From NCBI RefSeq assembly GCF_024502345.1, contig NZ_JALDNN010000001.1: a stretch of 64,000 nt of DNA, one strand, 5' to 3'. The notes under the pieces were generated by a model that was not told the origin of the DNA, searched no databases, and saw nothing but the letters and a program-made list of their open reading frames with translations. This DNA comes from Escherichia coli (GTDB taxonomy: Bacteria; Pseudomonadota; Gammaproteobacteria; Enterobacterales; Enterobacteriaceae). Both the position numbers and the translations under genes were made by a program. Below are positions 6,577-19,053 of this stretch, in pieces; the first letter of the stretch is position 1, and every line of letters begins with the position of its first letter.

Positions 6577-7524
6577 ATGACCTCGAACCGCAAGGGCAGG
6601 CGTGCGGAAACTGTGCGCCAACAAAACGTCCCCACCATCAACCCGGCACAGCTTTGGCTGGCAGGTCTGACGCGCGCCGGGCGCAAGGGGATGCAAAGCC
6701 AGCTTCGGCGCTGTGCCGGTATCCTGCTTCCGGGCTCGGATACCGACAGCTACCCCTGGCAGATGCTGAACTACACGGGGATGATGCAGATCCGTGCGCA
6801 CATGCTGGATGCTGGCTATGCTGTCGCGACTGTCAACATGGCACTGTCGGCGCTGAAATCGGTTGCCTTTAGCGCGTTCAGTATGGGTCTGATGGATGCT
6901 GACACGCTTGCGCGCATACGCAACGTCAGGCGGGTCAGTGGTGACGGTTGTAGGCTGGGGCGTGCGCTGGCCCGCCATGAAATCCGGTCAATGCTGGCGG
7001 CGGCAGCGACGTTCTCCACTGTGCGCTGTCAGCGCGAACGGGCCATTTTGTTGCTTCTGTGTGGTGCCGGGCTGCGAGCGGGTGAGCTGGTTGCCCTGAA
7101 TGCGGAGGATATTGACGTTGCCGCAGGGATTGTCTGGGTCAGGGAGGGAAAAGGGCGCAAAAGTCGTGAAATTCACCTTGCCGCGAAGGTATGCACGCAG
7201 CTGCGCCGTTGGCTGAAGTGCCGTGGAGACCATGAAGGGCCGTTGTTCAGTCGTATCAGCCGGGCAGACCGGCCAGGGCCACACAGGCTTACCACGACTG
7301 GATTGACGGGGCTGTTGGCACAGCTACGCGAAGCCGCTGGCGTGGACTATTTCACCCCGCACGACCTCAGACGAACGTTCATCACACAGTTGCTGGAGCA
7401 GGGAACCGACCTCAACGTGGTACGCCAGCTTGCGGGGCATGCCGATATCGCCACAACCACCCGATATGACTACAGGGGCCGGGGTACGCAGGACAGAGCC
7501 TCCAGGGCTTTCTGTTGCTGGTAA
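6577..7524 (+). CDS. tyrosine-type site-specific recombinase (phage integrase family)
   Basis: 315-aa ORF with GAGGA RBS; C-terminal catalytic-domain signature HDLRRTF...LAGH...TTTRYDY (R-H-R-Y residues). Confidence 0.8.
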   Translation: MTSNRKGRRAETVRQQNVPTINPAQLWLAGLTRAGRKGMQSQLRRCAGILLPGSDTDSYPWQMLNYTGMMQIRAHMLDAGYAVATVNMALSALKSVAFSAFSMGLMDADTLARIRNVRRVSGDGCRLGRALARHEIRSMLAAAATFSTVRCQRERAILLLLCGAGLRAGELVALNAEDIDVAAGIVWVREGKGRKSREIHLAAKVCTQLRRWLKCRGDHEGPLFSRISRADRPGPHRLTTTGLTGLLAQLREAAGVDYFTPHDLRRTFITQLLEQGTDLNVVRQLAGHADIATTTRYDYRGRGTQDRASRAFCCW

Positions 7525-7823
7525 ATCTTCATGGGGTGGGGGATGGCCTTCGTCACCTGCTGATTAAATTCACCAGAGGGTCCCGGAGATATTTTTGATG
7601 CCCCAAAGGCACGTCCAGGGCGGGCTCAGTGCTATGGGGAGGCCGGGAAAGTACGACCAACTCACCACCCCTGCTGAATGACACTATCGTACTTCGCGGC
7701 GCGGAGAGTATAACTTGGTAGCTGAGTATTTCTCAGAGCGATTAAAGTAGTTGTCTGTATGCATGTAGCGTCGGGAAACCATGAAACTAAACTCTGAATT
7801 CATTTAGCTGAATTTGCAGGCAA

Positions 7824-8339
7824 CTACGCCGAAGGACTGTCTGCCCGCTCTGTGCCATCCAGCTTTTCCATTGTTTGGATTACCCAGCGAAAATCATTTA
7901 TTTTTTCAGTCGTTTCCTTGCTCCATGTTTTGCCCGTTACTGCTGTTTTTTTCTTCTCTATATCCACTGGCGATGGATATTTTTTACAAAATTTGAGCAT
8001 GATATCCTTCAGTTCACACTTTTCCTTCAACTCATGAAATTTCAGATAGAGTTCTTTCAGCAGTTTCGCTTCTTTCGATACAGGTTCATATAAGTAGTCG
8101 ATGTAGACCATGTTGATCATGTTATCCAGCGCCTGGCGATATACTTTTCCTCTTCCTTTCTTCAGCATTGAATAATCGTCGTCGTCAAGCCAGTTAGCGA
8201 TCTCCAGTAAACGCTCCTGGCTGTCTTCATGCAGGTTGATTTCAAACCGCTTTCCATATTTCTCCTCCAGCCCTTTGCGGCTTTTCTGCTTAGGCGTCCT
8301 GGGCTCCGCCTTAGCCATATTTTCTTCGTTTTTTCCCAT
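7824..8339 (-). CDS. hypothetical lysine/glutamate-rich protein in an AT-rich segment
   Basis: 171-aa ORF is the only long frame in the AT-rich 7.6-8.4 kb block; divergent from alpA; no recognised family. Confidence 0.45.
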   Translation of the reverse strand: MGKNEENMAKAEPRTPKQKSRKGLEEKYGKRFEINLHEDSQERLLEIANWLDDDDYSMLKKGRGKVYRQALDNMINMVYIDYLYEPVSKEAKLLKELYLKFHELKEKCELKDIMLKFCKKYPSPVDIEKKKTAVTGKTWSKETTEKINDFRWVIQTMEKLDGTERADSPSA

Positions 8340-8383
8340 AACTCATACCTCATTTCGGATTGCCACTATCAGAGATCTTTTTG

Positions 8384-8431
8384 GACCGTCATAAATCAAT
8401 GACGGTCATTCTACTCCAAAGAATGACCGTC
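8384..8431. promoter_or_regulatory. operator-like cluster of GACCGTCAT inverted/direct repeats between divergent genes
   Basis: GACCGTCAT (8384-8392) and its reverse complement ATGACGGTC (8399-8407) with 6-bp spacer; second inverted pair GACGGTCATTC (8401-8411) / GAATGACCGTC (8421-8431). Confidence 0.5.
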
Positions 8432-8545
8432 CAAAAGTGGGCCGCGAACACTTTGACCGGCGATCGCCATGAATAATCGGCCGAAATCAACTTTGTAAAG
8501 GGAGGGCTGGCCGCCCACTGGGGGTGGATAGATGGAGTTAAAAAT

Positions 8546-8752
8546 ATGAATAACTGCAGGCTGCTCGATATCAAGACTGTGCTCGGGATGTACCCAGTAT
8601 CACGCGCAACGTTATATCGCCAGATCAAGGCGGGGCTCTTTCCGGAGCCTGTACGCATCGGTGCCCGTCGGGTGGCATGGCGTATGGAGGATATCCACGC
8701 GCATATCAGTGGGCTGCCCAATGTTGAGCTGGCTGAAGCAGCTCGTCTGTAA
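8546..8752 (+). CDS. alpA: AlpA-family phage regulatory protein (excisionase-like HTH)
   Basis: 68-aa protein; LLDIKTVLGMYPVSRATLYRQIKAGLFPEPVRIGARRVAWRMEDI matches AlpA/Xis-like HTH pattern. Confidence 0.8.
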   Translation: MNNCRLLDIKTVLGMYPVSRATLYRQIKAGLFPEPVRIGARRVAWRMEDIHAHISGLPNVELAEAARL

Positions 8753-8853
8753 GCCTCATATAGCCCCTCGTACAGGGGTTCATTCACCATAGTCAGTAGC
8801 ACCTCTACGGATAGCTACTGACATGAATTGCCGTGAGGCTAAGGGAACTGGCG

Positions 8854-9948
8854 ATGATTACAGTTAATCGTGAGCGTGTGGACAATCTCTCCGGGTCTGT
8901 ATACCTGGGGCGAAATACTGACGGCAATAGGTGCTATGGGCGAATTGATAAACTCGCCTGGGTAATGGATTTGTCTGATGATAGCGAGAATGCAGTGCTG
9001 AGTGGGCGTCTGGCTGGGCTGAGAGCGGGAGGGAACTATATCGTGCGGTGCCGCCCTGCCGGTAAAGGGGAGTGTTCTGGCCTCTATCGATCCGTGGTGG
9101 AGATCCGTCTCAAGAGTAAATCCAGTCATCATCCGCTGATGCTGGTCATTTACTTTGCGCCGACGAATACGGTGCGGGGCTCAGTGCGTATGGAAATGAG
9201 TCCTCAGCACTATTCAGCAGAGCAGATCACAGGACTGTTCATCTGGCTTGGGCGTAAGGGACGTCTGGGGAAGTACCTGTACAGGGGCTTGCGCCAGGCA
9301 TGGGTGACGTCCATTCACTACGCACTGGATGTAAAGGGAATGAAACTTCATGACTACCTGATTGGTCTGGCAAAGGTTCATGATGGTGAGTTTTACGATT
9401 TGCATGGTGAACAGGAAGGGTTGCGTCTGGGCTCTGCCACGCTGGTAGCCTCTGTCTACGCCAAGGTCCATTCTCCGTCGTTGAGCGTGGAGGAGCGCTA
9501 TGCATCTCCAAAGATTACGCTGGAGGAGGCGCAATTCGAGCGTTTTTTACGTCTGGAACTCCGCCTGCAGCCGGGGCGCCAGCAATTGAAGCTAAGTCAG
9601 ATGACGAGTATGACCTGTCTGGTCAGCAGGCTGATGTTCTGGCGTCGGGAGGTACTCCAGGATCGTCGGCTGGATCCGGATTTTGCGCAGCGGCTGGCGT
9701 TGATGTCAGTACCACGTGCACGGGCCACGTTTGAGCCCGCGAGGAGTCTGAATGGCCACAGAGTCAGTGCAACCCCAAAGGCTGCCAGGAAACGCGTGGA
9801 CAAGGTCATGGCTAATTACCGGGCGGCATTGTTTGATTCTGCGGCTATCTGGGACCAGTTACCGGTCATTCTCGCAAAACTCGGGCTTCTCGCGCAGCCT
9901 CAGTACTGGATTTACCGTAATCGCGTGAAGTGGCGAGGGAGCCGCTGA
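8854..9948 (+). CDS. hypothetical island protein, 364 aa
   Basis: Track ORF begins at GTG 8833; ATG 8854 with upstream AAGGGA RBS preferred. No Walker or nuclease motif recognised. Confidence 0.5.
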   Translation: MITVNRERVDNLSGSVYLGRNTDGNRCYGRIDKLAWVMDLSDDSENAVLSGRLAGLRAGGNYIVRCRPAGKGECSGLYRSVVEIRLKSKSSHHPLMLVIYFAPTNTVRGSVRMEMSPQHYSAEQITGLFIWLGRKGRLGKYLYRGLRQAWVTSIHYALDVKGMKLHDYLIGLAKVHDGEFYDLHGEQEGLRLGSATLVASVYAKVHSPSLSVEERYASPKITLEEAQFERFLRLELRLQPGRQQLKLSQMTSMTCLVSRLMFWRREVLQDRRLDPDFAQRLALMSVPRARATFEPARSLNGHRVSATPKAARKRVDKVMANYRAALFDSAAIWDQLPVILAKLGLLAQPQYWIYRNRVKWRGSR

Positions 9949-10301
9949 AGATAAGCCAGAAGCATATTAGAGGGGGTGTGATGCCACCCTCGTCTGTGGC
10001 GACCAAAAAAATGGCTCCCCCTGATATGTTCTGTGAGGCACGCCTCATCACAGCTGAACAGGGGGTGTGGCTATAGTATGGTGTATACAGTACATACCAG
10101 TACCAGTCTGTTCCCCCTCTGGAACCCTCAATGAGATTGCGACAAGTCACAAGGCATTGTTTTGAGGAAAATTCAGATCCTGAGATAGCCCCCCAAAAAA
10201 TGCAGCCAGCCTGAGTCACATCACTCTGCGCAACCGTAATTCACTGTGCAAATGTACAGCCTGTAAACAGGCAGCATGTTCATAAAACGGAGCACAGTGA
10301 A

Positions 10302-11786
10302 ATGAAAGCCTACTGCACACAAAACAATATTCTCGTCACGGAAAGCACGATGAATGCTTTCAGGGAGGCCATTTTTAGCGTTCCATTCGACGACACATGT
10401 GACGGACGATGCAAGCCAACGTGGTATATGTCCATTGCTATTTTTTTGCAGCATCTTATTTGCAGCGCCACTGCGAGCCGTAACACGCGTAAGCGGTCGC
10501 AATTTAAGGGGAACCGACTATGGACCTGTTCAGTTCCGTTTCCTTATGCACTGGGAGAAAAAGTGGCTCCGGCAGTATTCAGACGCTCAAGAGAGCTACC
10601 GTTTGAAAGAGCGCTGGAAAAGCTGGAGGAAGTAGGGTTTATCAGAATCATTACACACGATGTTATACGTCACAAATGCCGGGAATTTGCGCTTTCTCGG
10701 CGGTTTCTCGACGTGCTGTTTCCCGGGGACAGAACTGCTTATCTCAACCTGGAAGATCGGTATGGCTATCTGACCGATGTTTACCGCAGACGTATGGGAC
10801 CGATGACGCTGGAAGAACGGCTTGCTCAGGCCATGTTACGAAAGTGCAAAGTCAGGCATTTAACGTCAACCCGGAATATACCTGATAAGGCCTTTCGTGA
10901 GCGGGTTGCAGCGGTGTATGACCGGCTTGAAGCGTTGCCGGTTAACATCGATGCGCTGAGGATGTACTGTAACGAGCAACCATCCACTGTGAACAGGGTT
11001 TATTATCACAATTTTATCAGCCATCTTTGTGAAGCCGGTGTTGAGGCTATCAGCCTGAGTCCGTTAATCGTCTCATATCGGCAGGTATATCGTACGGCTA
11101 GGCTGGGCGGGCGTTCGTTTGAGGTGGGGAAGGGGTTTCAGTATCTGCCAAAAGGCATGAAATGGGCATGTCTGGGGCAGGGCTATAACTACGATATAAA
11201 AAGCAGCCAGCTTGAGATACTGCGTCATGAGCTGCAGCGTATCGGATTATCCGATAAAAACCTGAAGCGGCTGGAAACGGATTACATTACAAAGAAACTG
11301 GGCGTCACCACGGATGAGGTAAAACAATTTAGGTTTGCTGCTGTCTTTAGCGCTGGTTCGGTCAGCCTTTCAGTGAAAAGTGGAGTAAGGAAGAGGCTGA
11401 ATAAAGTTCTCGGCGATAAGAGGGCAGAAAACGTGCTCAAACGCTGGAAAAAATTGATGCAACCGCTACGGGAAGATCTGAAGAGGCTGATCGAGGATTA
11501 TCTGGCGACGGGAACCACAAATCGATACGGGCTTTGCGTGAAAAATGCTGTGGGACAAAATTTTAACTGTAGCTGGAAGAATTTCAGCGCCAGACAGGCA
11601 TGGCAGCCAGCGCAGATGCACCGAAAGCTGCTTGCGCACATGTTACAGGGGCTGGAAAGTCAGGCTGTGTACGATTATGTTGCCAGCAATAAAGGCGTTT
11701 GTGCGCTAGAGCATGATGGGTTTGTTACATATGAAGAGATAACTGACTGGTCCCATCCATATCTTTTGATAGAGAAAAAGCATTGA
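10302..11786 (+). CDS. hypothetical island protein, 494 aa
   Basis: Long ORF directly upstream of hsdM; no helicase or nuclease motifs, so it is not HsdR. Confidence 0.5.
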   Translation: MKAYCTQNNILVTESTMNAFREAIFSVPFDDTCDGRCKPTWYMSIAIFLQHLICSATASRNTRKRSQFKGNRLWTCSVPFPYALGEKVAPAVFRRSRELPFERALEKLEEVGFIRIITHDVIRHKCREFALSRRFLDVLFPGDRTAYLNLEDRYGYLTDVYRRRMGPMTLEERLAQAMLRKCKVRHLTSTRNIPDKAFRERVAAVYDRLEALPVNIDALRMYCNEQPSTVNRVYYHNFISHLCEAGVEAISLSPLIVSYRQVYRTARLGGRSFEVGKGFQYLPKGMKWACLGQGYNYDIKSSQLEILRHELQRIGLSDKNLKRLETDYITKKLGVTTDEVKQFRFAAVFSAGSVSLSVKSGVRKRLNKVLGDKRAENVLKRWKKLMQPLREDLKRLIEDYLATGTTNRYGLCVKNAVGQNFNCSWKNFSARQAWQPAQMHRKLLAHMLQGLESQAVYDYVASNKGVCALEHDGFVTYEEITDWSHPYLLIEKKH

Positions 11787-11922
11787 AGCAAGTTATACAT
11801 TATCTAAATCTGAGGGCTCATAGATTGGGCTGTTGCTCGGTTAAATCATTGTATCTTTTCAGTATGTTATAGTGTATTCTCATTTAAAGTGAGCGTAACT
11901 ATATCCTGAGTCAATTGAAAAT

Positions 11923-13458
11923 ATGAAGCAAGAAACGATCGTTCAAAAAATTTGGAGTCTCTGCAACATACTAAGAGGTGATGGTATCACCTATTATCAG
12001 TATGTTTCTGAACTAAGTTATTTGCTTTTTCTGAAGATTGCTCAAGAAAATGGTTCAGAAAAGCTGATACCTCAAGGCTACCGCTGGGCTGATCTTGAAT
12101 CCCATCCAGAAGCAGGATTATTAGGGTTTTATCAAGAGATGCTCACTCACTTGGGTGCGCATGTTAAAAATGAAATCATAAGAGAGATTTACGCATTCCC
12201 TACAACCGTTTTCTCCCATTCTGAAAATTTAAAAGCTGTTGTAGATGGTATTTCGAAAATAGAGTGGCACCAAGTAGGAAAAGATGGGTTTGGCGACCTC
12301 TATAGTGGTTTAATTGATAAAAGTGCTCAAGATACGCGTTCGGGAGCCGGGCAGTATTTTACTCCACGCTCTTTAGTTAACACGATAGTGAGATTGATAA
12401 AACCGAGTCTTGGCGAATTGATTCAAGATCCTGCGTCAGGAAGTGGTGGCTTCTTAGTTTCTGCTGACAGCTATATTCGAGTCAAATATTCACGAAAAGA
12501 GTATCAATTGAACCCTCCTAAATATCAAGGAGTGGAAATAGAGAAAAATACTCGTCGAATTTGCTTAATGAATACCTTTTTACATGATTTAGATGCACAC
12601 ATTATCTATGGTGATGCACTGACTGATGACGTAGCAGGGTTGGATGAAGCCGATGTAATCTTAGCCAATCCCCCTTTTGGCAATAAGGCTGGGGGACAAC
12701 GTCCTTTACGTAACGATATTCCATTCCCCAATACAAATAAGCAATTAGCTTTTTTGCAGCATATTTATTTGAAGCTTAAAGCTGGCGGTCGAGCTGCTGT
12801 AGTGGTACCCGATAATGTACTATTCGAATCTGGGGTTGGTACCGATGTACGTCGTGACTTAATGAATAAGTGCAATCTTCATACTATCTTGCGACTGCCC
12901 ACTGGTATTTTTTACGCCCAAGGTGTTAAAACCAATGTTCTGTTCTTTACTAAAGGCTCTGACAAAGATAAATATCAACAAGATAGCTGCACTGAGAACG
13001 TCTGGGTATACGATCTACGTACCAATATGCCAAGTTTTGGTAAACGTACACCCTTCGGTAATTCAGATATTGGCTTTGCGGCAGAAGATTTCGGTACAGA
13101 TCAGCACCTCGGCGCGTTCGAAAAAGTGTTCGGAGATAATCCAGACGGCACCAGCAAGCGCACCGAAGGTGAATACAGCTTTGGTGCAACAGATATTGAA
13201 ATTGATACAGAAGCAGTAGAAGAAAACCTGAATGTTGATGAACAGCTAGCCCATTCTCGCTGGCGCTACTTCAGCCGTGAGTGGATAGCCAATAATAAAG
13301 GCGATTCGCTGGATATCTCATGGTTAAAAGACAAAAAGAGTGTCGATGCGGCTGGTTTATCCGAGCCAAACGTTCTCGCTCGCGAGGCAAAAGAAGAATT
13401 AGAAGCAGCATTGAGTGAGCTGGATAGTTTATTGATCGCATTGGAAGGGGCCGAATAA
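11923..13458 (+). CDS. hsdM: Type I restriction-modification N6-adenine DNA methyltransferase subunit HsdM
   Basis: 511 aa; SAM-binding and catalytic motifs (DPASGSGGFL; ANPPFG) typical of HsdM; AT-rich codon usage. Confidence 0.9.
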   Translation: MKQETIVQKIWSLCNILRGDGITYYQYVSELSYLLFLKIAQENGSEKLIPQGYRWADLESHPEAGLLGFYQEMLTHLGAHVKNEIIREIYAFPTTVFSHSENLKAVVDGISKIEWHQVGKDGFGDLYSGLIDKSAQDTRSGAGQYFTPRSLVNTIVRLIKPSLGELIQDPASGSGGFLVSADSYIRVKYSRKEYQLNPPKYQGVEIEKNTRRICLMNTFLHDLDAHIIYGDALTDDVAGLDEADVILANPPFGNKAGGQRPLRNDIPFPNTNKQLAFLQHIYLKLKAGGRAAVVVPDNVLFESGVGTDVRRDLMNKCNLHTILRLPTGIFYAQGVKTNVLFFTKGSDKDKYQQDSCTENVWVYDLRTNMPSFGKRTPFGNSDIGFAAEDFGTDQHLGAFEKVFGDNPDGTSKRTEGEYSFGATDIEIDTEAVEENLNVDEQLAHSRWRYFSREWIANNKGDSLDISWLKDKKSVDAAGLSEPNVLAREAKEELEAALSELDSLLIALEGAE

Positions 13459-15143
13459 TGATTGAGACTTCTTTACCATGGCTGAGAGTCCAGCTCGGTG
13501 ACGTAGTTCCCTATGGTAAAACCGAAAAATGCGAATTATCTGACGTTACAGGTAACACTTGGGTACTTGAGCTCGAAGATATAGAAAAAGATAGCTCGAA
13601 GATCATACAACGGCTAGATGCAACTGCACGACCATTTAAAAGCACGAAAAATAAATTCCGTAAAGGAGATGTCCTTTACGGGAAACTGCGACCTTACTTA
13701 AATAAAGTTGTCATTGCGGACAGTTCTGGCGTTTGTTCGACTGAAATCATGCCTCTAAATGCTGAGCCATTTATTGACAATAGGTACCTCTTTTACTGGT
13801 TGAAAACTGAAGTTTTTATTGATTTTGTAAATTCTGTAAGCTACGGCGTGAATATGCCTCGACTCGGAACTAAAGATGGATTAGCTGCTCCATTTATTGT
13901 AGCTCCGCTTGCTGAGCAAAAAGTTATTGCCGATAAACTTGATACCTTGTTGGTGCAGGTGGATGCCATTAAGGCTCGCCTCGAACGCATCCCAGAAATC
14001 CTAAAAACCTTCCGCCAATCGATCCTCACCGCCGCAGTTAGTGGGAAGTTGACGGAGGGATGGCGATTAAAGAATAAACTCAGTAATGTAGTTGTAAAAC
14101 AAAATATCAATCTACCAAAATTAACCCCAAATGAACACTACCTCGAACATGTTGAAGGATGGCAATGGGTAAGACTGGGTTCTGTTGTTAGTCTAATAAA
14201 CGGCGATAGAGGAAAAAACTACCCTAATAAAAATGAATATGTTAAGGATGGAATACCGTTCATAAATACAGGGCATATTAATTCAGATGGAACACTTTCT
14301 GATGAACGCATGAATTTTATTTCCAAGGATAAGTTTGACTCCTTAAGTGGGGGAAAGACGAAATCAACAGATCTAGTTTATTGCCTCCGAGGTGCAACTA
14401 TGGGAAAAACTGCACGTGTCCACTACAAAATAGGGGCAATAGCATCCTCTCTTGTAATTATCCGACCGAGTGATTACATAGACAGAGATTTCGCATATTA
14501 TTTTCTTATTAGCCCTCCGGCTAAAGATTTAATTAATGAATTTGATAACGGATCCGCTCAGCCAAATCTATCTGCAAAGAGTTTGTCTACATACCCTTTA
14601 CAACTCCCTTCGTTTAAAGAACAAATCGAAATCGTCAGTCGCGTCGAAGAAATGTTCAACTTTTCATCTCTTGCCGAAGCAAAAGCTAAAACTGCATTAG
14701 AGCGTGTCAATAAAATTACTCAATCAATCCTAGCCAAAGCTTTCCGAGGCGAACTCACTGCAGATTGGCGCGCCGCCAACCCGGATTTAATCAGCGAAGA
14801 GAAAAGTGCTGAAGCTTTGCTGGAAAAAATTAAGGCAGAACGTGAAGCCATCGAAAAACAACCTAAGCCAACACGTTCCGTTATAAAAAAAAATACAGGT
14901 GGCCGTATGAGTAAACAGATTATCAAAGTGGTTGAAGCGCTAAAACAAGCGGGAAAACCGCTTAGTGGCCAACAATTGTTAGCTGCAGCTGGTTACCCTA
15001 GTGATAGCAGTACTGAGCAACTGGAACAGTTCTTTCTGGATATACGTGACGCTCTTACCATAGAAGAGTCCATTGTAAAGCTTGAGCGCGGTGGCGACAG
15101 TCAAGATTGGTTCGCCTTGGCTAATAATAAAGCAAAGAACTAA
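13458..15143 (+). CDS. hsdS: Type I restriction-modification specificity subunit HsdS with ~120-aa C-terminal extension
   Basis: Start ATG overlaps hsdM stop (ATGA). Two variable target-recognition regions separated by conserved helical repeats (...PLAEQKVIADKLDTL... and ...LPSFKEQIEIVSRVEEM...ILAKAFRGEL), then an extra tail. Confidence 0.85.
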   Translation: MIETSLPWLRVQLGDVVPYGKTEKCELSDVTGNTWVLELEDIEKDSSKIIQRLDATARPFKSTKNKFRKGDVLYGKLRPYLNKVVIADSSGVCSTEIMPLNAEPFIDNRYLFYWLKTEVFIDFVNSVSYGVNMPRLGTKDGLAAPFIVAPLAEQKVIADKLDTLLVQVDAIKARLERIPEILKTFRQSILTAAVSGKLTEGWRLKNKLSNVVVKQNINLPKLTPNEHYLEHVEGWQWVRLGSVVSLINGDRGKNYPNKNEYVKDGIPFINTGHINSDGTLSDERMNFISKDKFDSLSGGKTKSTDLVYCLRGATMGKTARVHYKIGAIASSLVIIRPSDYIDRDFAYYFLISPPAKDLINEFDNGSAQPNLSAKSLSTYPLQLPSFKEQIEIVSRVEEMFNFSSLAEAKAKTALERVNKITQSILAKAFRGELTADWRAANPDLISEEKSAEALLEKIKAEREAIEKQPKPTRSVIKKNTGGRMSKQIIKVVEALKQAGKPLSGQQLLAAAGYPSDSSTEQLEQFFLDIRDALTIEESIVKLERGGDSQDWFALANNKAKN

Positions 15144-15152
15144 GGACAGCCC

Positions 15153-16757
15153 ATGAAAGTCGACAAACTGCATATTCGCTCACGCTTTAAAAATCTTGAA
15201 AACGTGAAAGTGGACTTTGACGAAAACCACCTGATGACCGTTATCGTAGGCCGTAATGGTTCCGGTAAGTCCAATGTTCTAGAAGCCTTGGTTGCTATAT
15301 TTCGCAATCTTGATTTAGGTGAAGCACCAACATTTTCTTATGAGTTGGACTATCAACTAGGTGAGGAAGCCGGGGTTAAGTGGTATGACGTCAAGGTTGA
15401 TGCAGATCCAGACCGCGGAACGCTAGCAAAGCAATACCAAGTTTATGTCAAAGATAAACACGATAGCAAAGCGGATTTCAAGCTTACACCCTTCTCCAAA
15501 GTGAAACGCGATAAGAAAACCAAACAAGCAGAGTTTCTTCCTAACTTTCTATTCGCCTATTATTCCGGACCATCGGATAGATTAGAAAAATACTTTCGAA
15601 AGCATCGTGATGATTATTATCGAAACCTACTCTACAACAAGCTTGACTTGAAAGCAGATATTCGTTCTCTATTTTATGCCAAACCCTATCACAGTCAGTT
15701 TGTGCTCTTGGCATTTTTCCTGTCAGATGAAAATAGTCCTCAGCGCAAGTTTATTAAGGAGCATTTGGGTATTGAGGGATTGGACAGTATTCATTTTGTG
15801 ATGCGCCAACCTGAGTGGGCTAAGCTGAAGGGGGAATTATTCTGGGGAGCACAAGGTGTAGTTCGTCGCTTTTTGGATGAATTGATACAGCACACATTGT
15901 CACCGATAAAAGTAACTCGTCAAGAAGATACGTCGTTAACGGGTAGTTATATTCGAAATGAGTTCTTTCATCTATTTTTACCTGACGTAAACGCACTACA
16001 TGAATTTGCTAGAGATCTCAGTGCTGACGAACTGTTTAAAATGCTTGAAAGCACTCTGCTGTCAGAAATTATCTCTGAGGTTAGCATACGGGTGAAAGTA
16101 ACCAGCAGCAGGGAGCCTCTCACTTTCCGTGAACTTAGCGAAGGTGAACAACAGCTATTAACCGTATTGGGCTTACTCTGGTTCACCGGTGGTAAAGATT
16201 CCTTATTTTTACTCGACGAACCTGATACCCACCTTAATCCGTCATGGGCCGTTAAATACCTTAAATTCCTGCGTGAATTCGTACCCAATCATGAAACCAG
16301 CCATTTACTAATGGTCACACACCATCCTTTAGCTATTGCCGAGCTGAAGAAACAACAAGTACAAGTCATGTGGCGTGACGATGAAAATAATGTTCACTCA
16401 CAAGAGCCTTATATAGATCCTCGTGGCGCTGGCTTTATGGCCACACTTACTGAGATTTTTGGTCTAAATACAACACTGGATCTGGAAACCCAAAAGTTAT
16501 TGGACGATAGGAACGAACTAGCCCATATCGAAAATCGAACAGAAGATCAGAACAACCAGCTTGACCTTCTTAATGATGAGTTAAACAGACTAGGATTTTC
16601 ACTTGAAAACAGGGACCCGTTATACAGCGAGTTTCTTTTAGCATGGCAAGACCTAAGATACAGCGATAAACCACCACTAACACCGGATAAAGCGGCTCAG
16701 AGACGAGCTGCTATGAAAAATGTAATTGAGGCGCTTAAAGCTAAGAAGGGTTGCTAA
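15153..16757 (+). CDS. ABC-type (AAA_15/AAA_21-like) ATPase, Septu PtuA-like
   Basis: 534 aa; Walker A GRNGSGKSN, signature-like LSEGEQ, Walker B LFLLDEPDTHLNP, H-loop VTHHP; starts 10 bp after hsdS with AAGGA RBS. Confidence 0.75.
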   Translation: MKVDKLHIRSRFKNLENVKVDFDENHLMTVIVGRNGSGKSNVLEALVAIFRNLDLGEAPTFSYELDYQLGEEAGVKWYDVKVDADPDRGTLAKQYQVYVKDKHDSKADFKLTPFSKVKRDKKTKQAEFLPNFLFAYYSGPSDRLEKYFRKHRDDYYRNLLYNKLDLKADIRSLFYAKPYHSQFVLLAFFLSDENSPQRKFIKEHLGIEGLDSIHFVMRQPEWAKLKGELFWGAQGVVRRFLDELIQHTLSPIKVTRQEDTSLTGSYIRNEFFHLFLPDVNALHEFARDLSADELFKMLESTLLSEIISEVSIRVKVTSSREPLTFRELSEGEQQLLTVLGLLWFTGGKDSLFLLDEPDTHLNPSWAVKYLKFLREFVPNHETSHLLMVTHHPLAIAELKKQQVQVMWRDDENNVHSQEPYIDPRGAGFMATLTEIFGLNTTLDLETQKLLDDRNELAHIENRTEDQNNQLDLLNDELNRLGFSLENRDPLYSEFLLAWQDLRYSDKPPLTPDKAAQRRAAMKNVIEALKAKKGC

Positions 16758-17599
16758 TGATTTACATCAAACGAGACGCCACGCTAATTCCTGCAAAGGT
16801 ACTTGCCGTTGCCCAACGCGCGCAAGATGCTCTGGAACAGCTTCCCGCTGAGCAGAGGAAAGGTTTCATCAAGAAAAAGTCTCATATATGGAGAGGCTTT
16901 TCTAAATACCTAGCCCAAATGTCTTATGGGAAGTGCTGGTATTCAGAAGCTAAAGATGCAGGTGCAAATTTCGATGTAGATCATTTCCGACCTAAGGCTG
17001 AAGCAAAGAGGACAGAAGATTTGGTCGATGCGGATGGTTATGCGTGGCTCGCATTTGATTGGGAAAACTTCAGGCTTTCTGCTCAGAATTGTAACCGTTT
17101 AAACACAGATGAATCAGGTAACACGGTAGGAAAAGGCAGTTGGTTCCCGCTGCTAGATGGTAGCCCTAAAGCCTGCTGGGATAATCGCTGTATTAACGAT
17201 GAAAAAGTCACTTTGCTAGACCCTGTAGTTAAAGCTGACCTCACCTATATAGACTACGACGACAGCGGTAGATTTACTTCAAGTAAGCTCTGCGTTGGTA
17301 AGGCAGCATTAAGGGTTAGGCAATCTGGCATTATTTATGGCCTCAATTTGGAGAAAATGCGTGAAGCACGATTTCAGGTTATGAGGGAGGCTAAAGAACT
17401 CCTTGAAACTATTCACCAATGTGCCGAAGACTTAGACCCTCTGGGCAATGAAGCCCCCATGAGAACTATTGAACGACAAATAGAACAACTCCAATCCAGA
17501 ACCCGGGCCGATGCACCATTTAGCCGTGCAGTAAGAACACAACTGATAAAACTCGGTGCAGAGGATTACTTAATTGATCGAAGTTTGGATGCAGCCTAG
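16757..17599 (+). CDS. HNH endonuclease-domain protein, Septu PtuB-like
   Basis: ATG at 16757 overlaps the upstream stop (TAATG); HNH-type motif CWYSE...DVDHFRPK...NFRLSAQNCNRLN. Confidence 0.7.
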   Translation: MIYIKRDATLIPAKVLAVAQRAQDALEQLPAEQRKGFIKKKSHIWRGFSKYLAQMSYGKCWYSEAKDAGANFDVDHFRPKAEAKRTEDLVDADGYAWLAFDWENFRLSAQNCNRLNTDESGNTVGKGSWFPLLDGSPKACWDNRCINDEKVTLLDPVVKADLTYIDYDDSGRFTSSKLCVGKAALRVRQSGIIYGLNLEKMREARFQVMREAKELLETIHQCAEDLDPLGNEAPMRTIERQIEQLQSRTRADAPFSRAVRTQLIKLGAEDYLIDRSLDAA

Positions 17600-17770: not shown

Positions 17771-17941
17771 ATGAGCACCCACAAAAAAACTCAGGCAAGC
17801 TACGCTAAGCCATCTCGTGCTGACATTGTTCGCTCAGTAGCAACATCTACGGCTGTTGAAACAGGGCAGTCCTCCGCGAAGATCGAAGCTTCACTTGAAG
17901 CCACGCGCAAAAAATTTGCTCATTTGCGTCTTGCGGTTTAA
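17771..17941 (+). CDS. small protein of unknown function (56 aa), convergent with the Fic gene
   Basis: ATG preceded by AGGAG RBS 5 nt upstream; 3' end overlaps the Fic stop region by 4 bp. Confidence 0.5.
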   Translation: MSTHKKTQASYAKPSRADIVRSVATSTAVETGQSSAKIEASLEATRKKFAHLRLAV

Positions 17942-18555
17942 TCCCTTCTTAATGCTTCTCGCACCCAGTGTTTCATCGGCTCATAGTCCATTGATATGCC
18001 AGCATGGATGGCCGATATATACTGAGTTTTGTTTTGCTCCCAGCTTTGATAATCCAGCGGTTTGTATCCTCCCTGAACGGCCATCACGTCGGCTAGCAGT
18101 CGCGACAGGCGTCCGTTTCCCTCTCTGAATGGATGGATAAGTATTATCTCTACATGGGTTATGGCGATAGCGGTGATGAGTTGTTCTTCGTCCATGCCGC
18201 TACACGGTGTGTATTGAGCCAGATACTTAGTGTCGAATTCGTTCAGCAGTTTTGGCACCTGCGCTGAGGGGGCAAACATAAAGCCGCCTTTGCTAATATT
18301 CACCGCTCTTTCTTGTCCAGCCCACTCGTAGATGTTACCTAACCAGCGGCGATGCCAGCTTTTTAGCATGGCTACGCTGAGCTGTCCTTCCGGGAACTGC
18401 TCTTCAAAAACAGACTGGTAGAGTTGTTCTAACAGGACAAGTTCAGCCTCATCCATCTCATCAGAAGTCGCAATCCCCAGCTTATTAGCCAAAACCTGCT
18501 CGCCAGAGTCTTTCTCATACTGGCCTTCACTGCTGGATACATGGTATCGGCTCAT
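17938..18555 (-). CDS. Fic-domain protein (putative AMP-transferase)
   Basis: 205 aa with canonical Fic motif HPFREGNGRLSRLL. Confidence 0.85.
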   Translation of the reverse strand: MSRYHVSSSEGQYEKDSGEQVLANKLGIATSDEMDEAELVLLEQLYQSVFEEQFPEGQLSVAMLKSWHRRWLGNIYEWAGQERAVNISKGGFMFAPSAQVPKLLNEFDTKYLAQYTPCSGMDEEQLITAIAITHVEIILIHPFREGNGRLSRLLADVMAVQGGYKPLDYQSWEQNKTQYISAIHAGISMDYEPMKHWVREALRRD

Positions 18556-19053
18556 GGAGATGCCCTGTGTTATTAGAAGGAGGGGAAAACAGAGAGAGTA
18601 TAACGCTGGATGAGTACAGCAAACAATATTCTTAAAATCAGATAGTTACAAAAGTGTAGGTTAAAATGTATTTTTTATTCTCTGGTGGAAAATAATCTTT
18701 AATAATCAGCATTAACACACCAATGCATCATGGGCGTATGGGCGTCGAAATTTTCTATTGCACTCATGGGGTTATGTCCGGTTCCCTGATATTAAATGGG
18801 GTGTGATGGTTTTTATTTTCGTTGTAATCACATAAGGCGCACATGATACCGGAGTTAATCATTTCAGGGGAAGAAGCGAACGGCGAGTTCTTGATGTTGG
18901 TTCCGGGAAAGATGCTGTTTTGCAGCTTTTGCGTGATGCTTATGAAGCAAGTACGCAAAATTGCGTCGGTTGAATAAACCTCCTCCTTCAGAGCCATAGT
19001 CCCCTTTCAAATTAAGTTGTAGTATAAATACACCTTAAGAGTATGGAGGCAGT

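Follow-up and report, generated by a model that had tools for sequence, protein, structure and literature searches.

Two hypothetical genes of an Escherichia coli mutS island as a probable replication module: a divergent Rep_trans-fold initiator and a minimal family-A polymerase

The stretch of Escherichia coli DNA analyzed here, 64,000 nucleotides of contig NZ_JALDNN010000001.1 (the window), carries an island inserted in the mismatch repair gene mutS, and the two largest genes of the island backbone, ORF1 and ORF2, are annotated as hypothetical wherever they occur. We conclude that these genes probably constitute the replication module of the island, with ORF1 as a nicking initiator and ORF2 as a polymerase or primase-polymerase. 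The activities and the origin are what we infer; the direct observations are the folds of the two proteins, their conserved catalytic residues, their constant position in a backbone with variable cargo, and the replacement of ORF1 in situ by a replicative helicase. The principal features of the pair are the following.

8854–9948, + strand: ORF1, 364 amino acids (aa) from its ATG, a hypothetical protein in RefSeq
9457–9459, + strand: codon of the predicted catalytic Tyr202 of ORF1, paired by hhalign with Y191 of RepC
10302–11786, + strand: ORF2, 494 aa, a hypothetical protein in RefSeq
10302–11039, + strand: N-terminal domain of ORF2 (aa 1–246), predicted mixed α/β with winged-helix-like elements
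11040–11786, + strand: predicted polymerase core of ORF2 (aa 247–494), a minimal family-A thumb, palm and fingers
11193–11195 and 11715–11717, + strand: codons of the predicted palm aspartates D298 and D472 of ORF2

The initial annotation, made from the sequence alone, had described two large ORFs of these lengths between alpA (8546–8752) and hsdM (11923–13458), and RefSeq and the homologues confirm both, on the + strand. A GTG at 8833 is an alternative start of ORF1 that would yield 371 aa; the ATG is favored by RefSeq and by the homologues. Because full-length homologues of each protein are numerous across Enterobacterales and share dozens of invariant residues, ORF1 and ORF2 are real, selected genes. 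The region 8400–11900 is 100% identical to E. coli strain KMi029, and the exact ORF1/ORF2 region is present in 5 of 5,426 complete E. coli genomes and hence rare in the species; the cluster that holds the exact ORF1 sequence was seen on ~700 contigs. The reported lack of a P-loop was borne out by a motif scan, which detected neither a Walker A nor an HUH motif in either protein. The broader statement that the proteins have no recognizable motifs holds for family hidden Markov model (HMM) searches, which gave no match in Pfam or NCBIfam and no PADLOC 2.0 defence family at E ≤ 0.1; it does not hold for ORF2, in which the family-A motifs A and C can be recognized, or for ORF1, which has Rep_trans motifs. 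Profile searches against PDB sequences returned nothing for either protein, and the sole PHROG match of ORF2 is a PHROG of unknown function. The fold assignments came from structure prediction and profile-profile comparison, sequence-only searches having found nothing.

On this basis, ORF1 is assigned as a highly divergent Rep_trans-fold initiator of rolling-circle replication; the fold is well supported, and nicking is the activity predicted from it. The predicted structure contains a catalytic domain built as a crescent- or horseshoe-shaped, pseudo-twofold β-sheet, as in Rep_trans (PF02486), followed by a helical C-terminal part (approximately aa 265 to 364). Tyr202 and K204, which correspond to Y191-x-K193 of Rep_trans, do not vary among 23 sequences with identities as low as 22%. 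In the same set, A157 and D159 of the A157-L158-D159 segment, on the strand equivalent to R140-x-D142-x-A144-x-D146, are invariant as well, as are all three charged residues of R233-x-E235-x-R237, on the strand equivalent to R212-x-E214. Most family members read T-R-x-D-x-A-L-D on the first of these strands; the window protein, like its close relatives, has S153 and H155 instead. Around residues 155–159 (window 9316–9330), the canonical arginine and first aspartate are replaced by S/T and H in the subgroup to which the window protein belongs, which is possibly a change of metal ligand. The divergence is such that the Pfam Rep_trans model does not match the window protein even at E ≤ 10; it matches 3 of the 23 relatives weakly (best 0.021), and no other family matched. 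The initial annotation had suggested looking for an HUH initiator: ORF1 lacks the HxH motif, and its fold is that of Rep_trans and not of HUH endonucleases. No phage homologue of ORF1 was found.

ORF2 is assigned as a minimal family-A polymerase of the TV-Pol type, again with a well supported fold from which polymerase or primase activity is predicted. The key residues of the core are R271, D298, Q303, K341, F345, F349, Q449-G450-x-E452 and H471-D472-G473, with motif A recognizable as YNYDIKSSQLEIL and motif C as LEHDGF. The β-hairpin arginine R271, which pairs with R668 of Pol I, is present in 74 of 74 family members, and the palm aspartates D298 and D472 in 74 and 73 of the 74, respectively; D472 pairs with Pol I D882, and D298 lies on the strand preceding an SQxE helix, like Pol I D705. 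K341, likewise found in all 74, pairs with K758 of the RxxxK motif in the Pol I fingers. Of motif B (RRxxKxxNFGxxYG), ORF2 retains just the K, the F and the F. The alignment with Pol I is confined to residues 663–887 of the latter, and no exonuclease or other nuclease domain is present in ORF2, the N-terminal 246 aa of which match winged-helix-like folds and not exonucleases. This N-terminal domain is homologous to the N-domain of N-domain-containing TV-Pol proteins and would bind DNA. A link to the TV-Pol family is a full-length hhalign match to gp030 of phage Ma-LMM01 (99.7%, E = 1e-26), which, judging from its transposase neighbors, appears to be the TV-Pol reported for this phage in the paper that defined the family. 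Canonical family-A HMMs (Pfam, including PF00476, and NCBIfam) match neither ORF2 nor any of its 74 relatives, and none of the 19 published PolA clusters corresponds to the ORF2 type (PMC10201439). With regard to the primase fold that had been proposed as a check, ORF2 is neither a DnaG-type nor an archaeo-eukaryotic primase; it does belong to the family-A/TV-Pol kind, a predicted primase-polymerase, with such activity shown for CcPol.

The genomic associations of ORF2 relatives are those of mobile elements, as expected for the TV-Pol type: integrases occur in every island, a helicase is the neighbor in two loci (L021 and L027), and a TV-Pol homologue on a Polaromonas plasmid adjoins a resolvase gene. 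That small plasmid was considered as direct proof of a replicative role and rejected, as it has its own RepA and so does not rely on its TV-Pol to replicate. Full-length ORF2 homologues with ~26% identity are also encoded by Erwinia phage Alexandra (locus L041, 6929–8506) and in 49 other phage records. These are jumbo phages of Erwinia, Dickeya and Yersinia, in which the gene is annotated as hypothetical and lies near a Holliday-junction resolvase and the clamp loader; the 368-aa and 216-aa proteins encoded upstream of it were examined as relatives of ORF1 and rejected (hhalign probability <1%). A word-indexed search with a broad ORF2 alignment recovered close relatives only and added nothing, and cluster look-ups of distant members gave only unnamed or hypothetical proteins.

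Further evidence comes from gene order. A scan of ~100,000 species-representative genomes yielded 24 loci, all in Enterobacterales, and in 15 loci ORF1, or a divergent subtype of it, directly precedes ORF2 in the order alpA-ORF1-ORF2. The genes after ORF2 change in almost every locus: hsdMS with Septu in the window and in L025, and elsewhere type I restriction-modification (R-M), AbiE with Phd/Fic, PDC-S71, RmrTA, a type IV restriction enzyme, or Gabija. As the cargo varies and the pair stays beside alpA, ORF1 and ORF2 are part of the backbone, with the defence genes as cargo. Two loci, L021 and L027, have proteins of ~280 and ~560 aa in the alpA-ORF2 slot instead of ORF1, and the larger one matches the SCCmec replicative helicase Cch1 (5e-13) as well as phage primase-helicase PHROGs in their helicase part (3.5e-29). 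One type of initiator has here been displaced in situ by another, next to a polymerase that is the same. Moreover, ORF2 proteins that are mutually 87–92% identical pair with ORF1 subtypes only ~24% identical to one another; the initiator is therefore an exchangeable module for specificity beside a generic enzyme, and the origin presumably swaps together with it. The design is modular, with an exchangeable initiator (three Rep subtypes or a helicase), a constant polymerase and two flanking slots for defence genes. A replicative role is favored because a helicase can take the place of ORF1, because the pair has a constant place in the backbone and because the island has no other replication genes. 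Of the two functions initially suggested for these ORFs, replication or primase genes of the island are accordingly supported, and the synteny of related islands agrees with it; additional defence genes are not, given the lack of a PADLOC match and a pair that stays constant while the adjacent cargo changes.

Several variants of the locus deserve mention. Budvicia aquatica (L032) has two tandem ORF2-type genes, at 7769–9166 (465 aa) and 9998–11449 (483 aa), preceded by three genes of no assigned function in place of ORF1. Unannotated remnants of the last ~140–190 bp of an ORF2-type gene occur in ~515 of the 5,426 complete E. coli genomes, for instance at 9001–9137 of L044 (E. coli ST131), where the remnant adjoins an integrase at ychF, and in L034–L039, in decayed islands rich in insertion sequences (IS). 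This distribution suggests that the boundary between the 3' end of ORF2 and the cargo often outlasts the decay of the island.

The proposed mechanism would begin with alpA and the upstream recombinases, which would control excision and expression, the island being excised, probably as a circle, by an alpA- and integrase-mediated reaction. ORF1 would then nick one strand at its cognate hairpin site by means of Tyr202 and a bound metal ion, leaving a 3'-OH for rolling-circle synthesis while a host helicase unwinds the duplex. ORF2 would extend the end, prime synthesis, or both; most plausibly, it would prime and convert the displaced single strand to duplex. Candidate cis elements lie on either side of ORF1:

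8792–8822: perfect 9-bp inverted repeat, GTCAGTAGC, a 13-nt loop and GCTACTGAC, ~30 nt upstream of ORF1
9949–10301, + strand: spacer between ORF1 and ORF2, 353 nt, aligned across 12 loci
10242–10249 paired with 10292–10299: predicted spacer stem CACTGTGC/GCACAGTG, which encloses the Shine-Dalgarno sequence of ORF2

The repeat at 8792–8822 is a candidate initiator-specific site, either origin or operator. The alpA-ORF1 gap contains perfect inverted repeats of 8–11 bp in L006, L017, L020, L023 and L024 and of 7 bp in L025, for an estimated chance expectation of ~0.05 per locus, and their stem sequences differ between loci, the pattern expected for such a site. In the spacer, a hairpin right after the ORF1 stop codon is kept across the 12 aligned loci, in which a block GGCTATAGTATGG (10069–10081) is conserved and a motif GTAATTCA (10236–10243) is invariant, each of the two being unique in the window. 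The spacer folds with z = -3.1. The Shine-Dalgarno sequence GGAG (10289–10292) stands just before the ORF2 start codon, and the stem around it, likewise kept across the 12 loci, shows one compensatory change (T/A) in L006, which suggests that ORF2 may be under translational control. The spacer has no match in Rfam, so that its assignment to a known RNA family was rejected; its motifs are not iterons either, having no repeats elsewhere in the island, and no sigma-70 consensus promoter was seen on its + strand. It is unlikely to be an ORF1-specific origin, because its alignable part tracks ORF2 and not the type of ORF1. The spacer also serves as the second insertion slot for defence genes, in L029 (7671–9422), L016 (7598–9433) and L027 (7739–8959), the inserts being a retron Ec67-type reverse transcriptase (-Toprim), a DUF262/HEC-06 type-IV-like enzyme and JukA.

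A number of observations weigh against a joint replicative function. In the ORF1 subgroup to which the window protein belongs, two Rep_trans residues are substituted (R140 by S153 and D142 by H155), and position 200, equivalent to the R189 before the tyrosine that is critical for RepD activity, is a serine here and varies across the family. ORF2 lacks the arginine of RxxxK, the position being T here and V, R, K or E across the family, and has glycine in place of Pol I E883. The two genes are split by a terminator-like hairpin and sometimes by inserted genes, and their co-divergence is weak (Spearman 0.17). The ORF2 relatives of jumbo phages occur without ORF1, the island encodes no helicase or single-strand-binding protein (SSB) as a partner, and no origin could be defined. 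Finally, excision and replication of the island, as well as nicking and polymerization by the pair, are what we infer from these data. Given the hairpin, the splitting inserts and the lack of co-divergence, ORF1 and ORF2 may work independently; we keep our confidence moderate on account of the metal-site substitutions, the lack of a partner helicase or SSB, the division into separate transcription units and the jumbo-phage ORF2 proteins that lack an ORF1.

Among the alternatives, mobilization is an unlikely account that nevertheless deserves consideration: ORF1, as a MOBT-like relaxase, would nick an origin of transfer, the single-stranded island would be moved by a helper conjugative system, and ORF2 would prime and synthesize the complementary strand, in the donor or in the recipient. 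Relaxase-driven rolling-circle replication and transfer share one nicking reaction mechanistically, and the island, an integrative one, lacks transfer genes. Rep_trans proteins act as relaxases in integrative elements such as Tn916 and ICESt3 (PMC6499999, PMC9371924, PMC4797284); the MOBT relaxases described there, however, come from Firmicutes. The island also lacks genes for a coupling protein or a type IV secretion system, and the ORF1 slot of L021 and L027 holds a replicative helicase and not a relaxase, which points to vegetative replication. Somewhat more doubtful is an extended form of the replication model, in which the island would be "self-synthesizing": a nickase and a self-priming TV-Pol would amplify the excised island without a helicase and largely independently of the host, the product possibly being DNA in single-stranded or concatemeric form that could be packaged or transferred. 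Since the only phage homologues of ORF2 are in jumbo phages, such amplification might be coupled to jumbo-phage infection, which would make this a novel type of satellite-like defence island in Enterobacterales.

A defence function of the pair or of ORF2 by itself, be it anti-phage or abortive infection and exerted, for instance, by a polymerase that synthesizes aberrant DNA upon infection, is very improbable. The two genes do lie in a defence island beside defence operons, bacteria do use polymerase-like enzymes, namely reverse transcriptases, for defence, with retron and DRT models available, and one weak Foldseek match, at rank 49, is to a "ZorC EH domain" protein. Yet PADLOC models find nothing, the pair is constant beside alpA as the defence cargo changes, a replicative helicase displaces the initiator in L021 and L027, and homologues reside in phage genomes as well as in elements linked to a transposase or resolvase; we conclude that the pair is not a defence system. 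Even less credence is given to ORF2 as a T7-like single-subunit RNA polymerase for island genes, with ORF1 as a DNA-binding factor that has lost nicking. The least credible view holds that an old replication module, from a plasmid or phage, is decaying here and has left both genes without function: many genomes do contain only fragments (L031, L033–L039, and a ~190-bp 3' remnant in ~515 E. coli genomes), but the genes considered here are intact and full-length, keep invariant catalytic residues in many genera, and include an exact ORF1 sequence cluster found on ~700 contigs.

The replication module resides in an island of ~19.7 kb, which comparison with the K-12 empty site places within the first 14 codons of mutS and which is bounded on both sides by a 44-bp direct repeat, an imperfect one that corresponds to these codons. 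Its other features are listed below.

Just upstream of window position 1 (4632–4675 in L001): attL, from the K-12 empty-site comparison
6577–7524, + strand: Xer-like tyrosine recombinase, conserved backbone upstream of alpA
7824–8339, − strand: 171-aa protein, conserved backbone upstream of alpA
8546–8752, + strand: alpA, AlpA-family regulator/excisionase, from PHROG excisionase/regulator matches, RefSeq and its position in related loci
11923–17599, + strand: cargo slot with hsdM, hsdS and Septu PtuA/PtuB, outside the ORF1/ORF2 module
17938–18555, − strand: Fic/DOC protein ("mobile mystery protein B"-like), right-end backbone, closing the cargo slot
18724–18767: attR, the native first 44 nt of mutS, from the K-12 empty-site comparison

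The order of the backbone, taken from related loci that show both ends, is P4-type integrase, Ner/SfsB-like helix-turn-helix (HTH) protein, CbtA, DUF2787, RadC, Xer-like recombinase, a minus-strand gene of 166–171 aa, alpA, ORF1 and ORF2, followed by the variable cargo and Fic. Other replication, packaging or transfer/conjugation genes are absent from this backbone. The K-12 protein YfjI, encoded after alpA in CP4-57, was considered as a relative and rejected, being a DUF3987 protein. An IS5-family transposase gene at 194–1210, near the left end of the island, is missing there in KMi029, and further to the right the coordinates of the window and KMi029 are shifted by 2 bp; the window is thus derived from another strain than KMi029, its best match. 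In the cargo slot, hsdM and hsdS occur without hsdR and are followed in the same operon by PtuA (PADLOC 2e-215), which also matches the NCBIfam "restriction system-associated AAA ATPase", and PtuB (HNH). A type I methylase/specificity pair is apparently coupled here to a Septu ATPase-nuclease that replaces HsdR, and L025 is arranged similarly. Many related islands have the Fic/DOC gene at their right end; in the window it has no obvious adjacent antitoxin, save a 56-aa ORF at ~17771–17941. The repeat copy fused to mutS is island-derived, with MSIIENLDSHTPMM in place of MSAIENFDAHTPMM, and ~19.7 kb now separate the gene from its native promoter, so that expression of mutS may depend on island sequence.

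Islands with the ORF1/ORF2 backbone are widespread in E. coli, Salmonella, Klebsiella, Serratia, Yersinia, Proteus and related genera. The assignments proposed here make replication of the island after excision directly testable, extend Rep_trans proteins and TV-Pol/PolA-type primase-polymerases from Gram-positive plasmids and SCC elements to Enterobacterales, and flag two protein families that at present escape Pfam and NCBIfam.

Compared with the Rep_trans proteins of the pT181 family (RepC, RepD, RepDE) and RepSTK1, ORF1 shows similarity below Pfam detection, has S and H at the R140 and D142 positions in its subgroup and no equivalent of R189, and has its gene on an integrative island in the chromosome of Enterobacterales rather than on a small Gram-positive plasmid. 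In being a Rep_trans-type protein of a chromosomally integrated element, with a predicted single-strand nicking activity, it resembles the MOBT relaxases Orf20 of Tn916 and RelSt3 of ICESt3 and RstA of CTXphi. Those proteins are found in conjugative elements of Firmicutes or in a filamentous phage, whereas conjugation and virion genes are absent here and the neighbor is a polymerase. ORF2 resembles the N-domain subset of TV-Pol (Iyer, Abhiman and Aravind 2008) in its size of ~500 aa, its N-domain joined to a minimal family-A core lacking an exonuclease, its β-hairpin arginine, two palm aspartates and fingers lysine, and its occurrence in elements with integrases, resolvases or transposases, and R-M cargo. 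It differs in the missing arginine of RxxxK and in an N-domain predicted to be mixed α/β and not all-helical, and neither an Enterobacterales clade nor pairing with a rolling-circle initiator is part of TV-Pol as described.

The CcPol-MP-Cch2 module of SCCmec and the PolA-SSB primases of Bacillota offer a parallel, in that a family-A polymerase stands in for a primase on an integrative island with many conflict genes, and in L021 and L027 only, ORF2 stands beside a Cch-like helicase as in SCCmec. In the window, by contrast, neither a conserved small OB-fold partner ORF nor a helicase flanks ORF2, the usual partner of which is a Rep_trans protein; CcPol retains exonuclease helices that ORF2 lacks and is nearer to canonical Pol I (CHEAP subfamily), whereas ORF2 goes undetected by Pol I HMMs. 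Pipolins, with the E. coli piPolB, and casposons are integrative, encode their own, presumably self-priming DNA polymerase and tyrosine recombinases, and carry defence or R-M cargo, a combination that the mutS island shares. The polymerase of pipolins is of family B and that of the mutS island of family A, and we know of no rolling-circle initiator described for pipolins. Counterparts in overall layout are the intY/alpA/RadC defence islands of Pseudomonas (I55), which integrate at tmRNA and are transduced by jumbo phages (PMC12595487). They share with the mutS island a P4-type integrase, alpA, RadC, HTH proteins, variable defence cargo and the absence of transfer genes, but carry inovirus Gp2-like and YqaJ genes, and a Rep_trans/TV-Pol pair is not among the genes reported for them (PMC12595487). 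For the mutS island, a jumbo-phage link is only hinted at by the ORF2 homologues of jumbo phages. Both proteins belong to known structural kinds; what appears to be undescribed in the literature searched is the two Enterobacterales families themselves, the pairing of a Rep_trans protein with a TV-Pol, and a modular layout bordering two slots for defence cargo.

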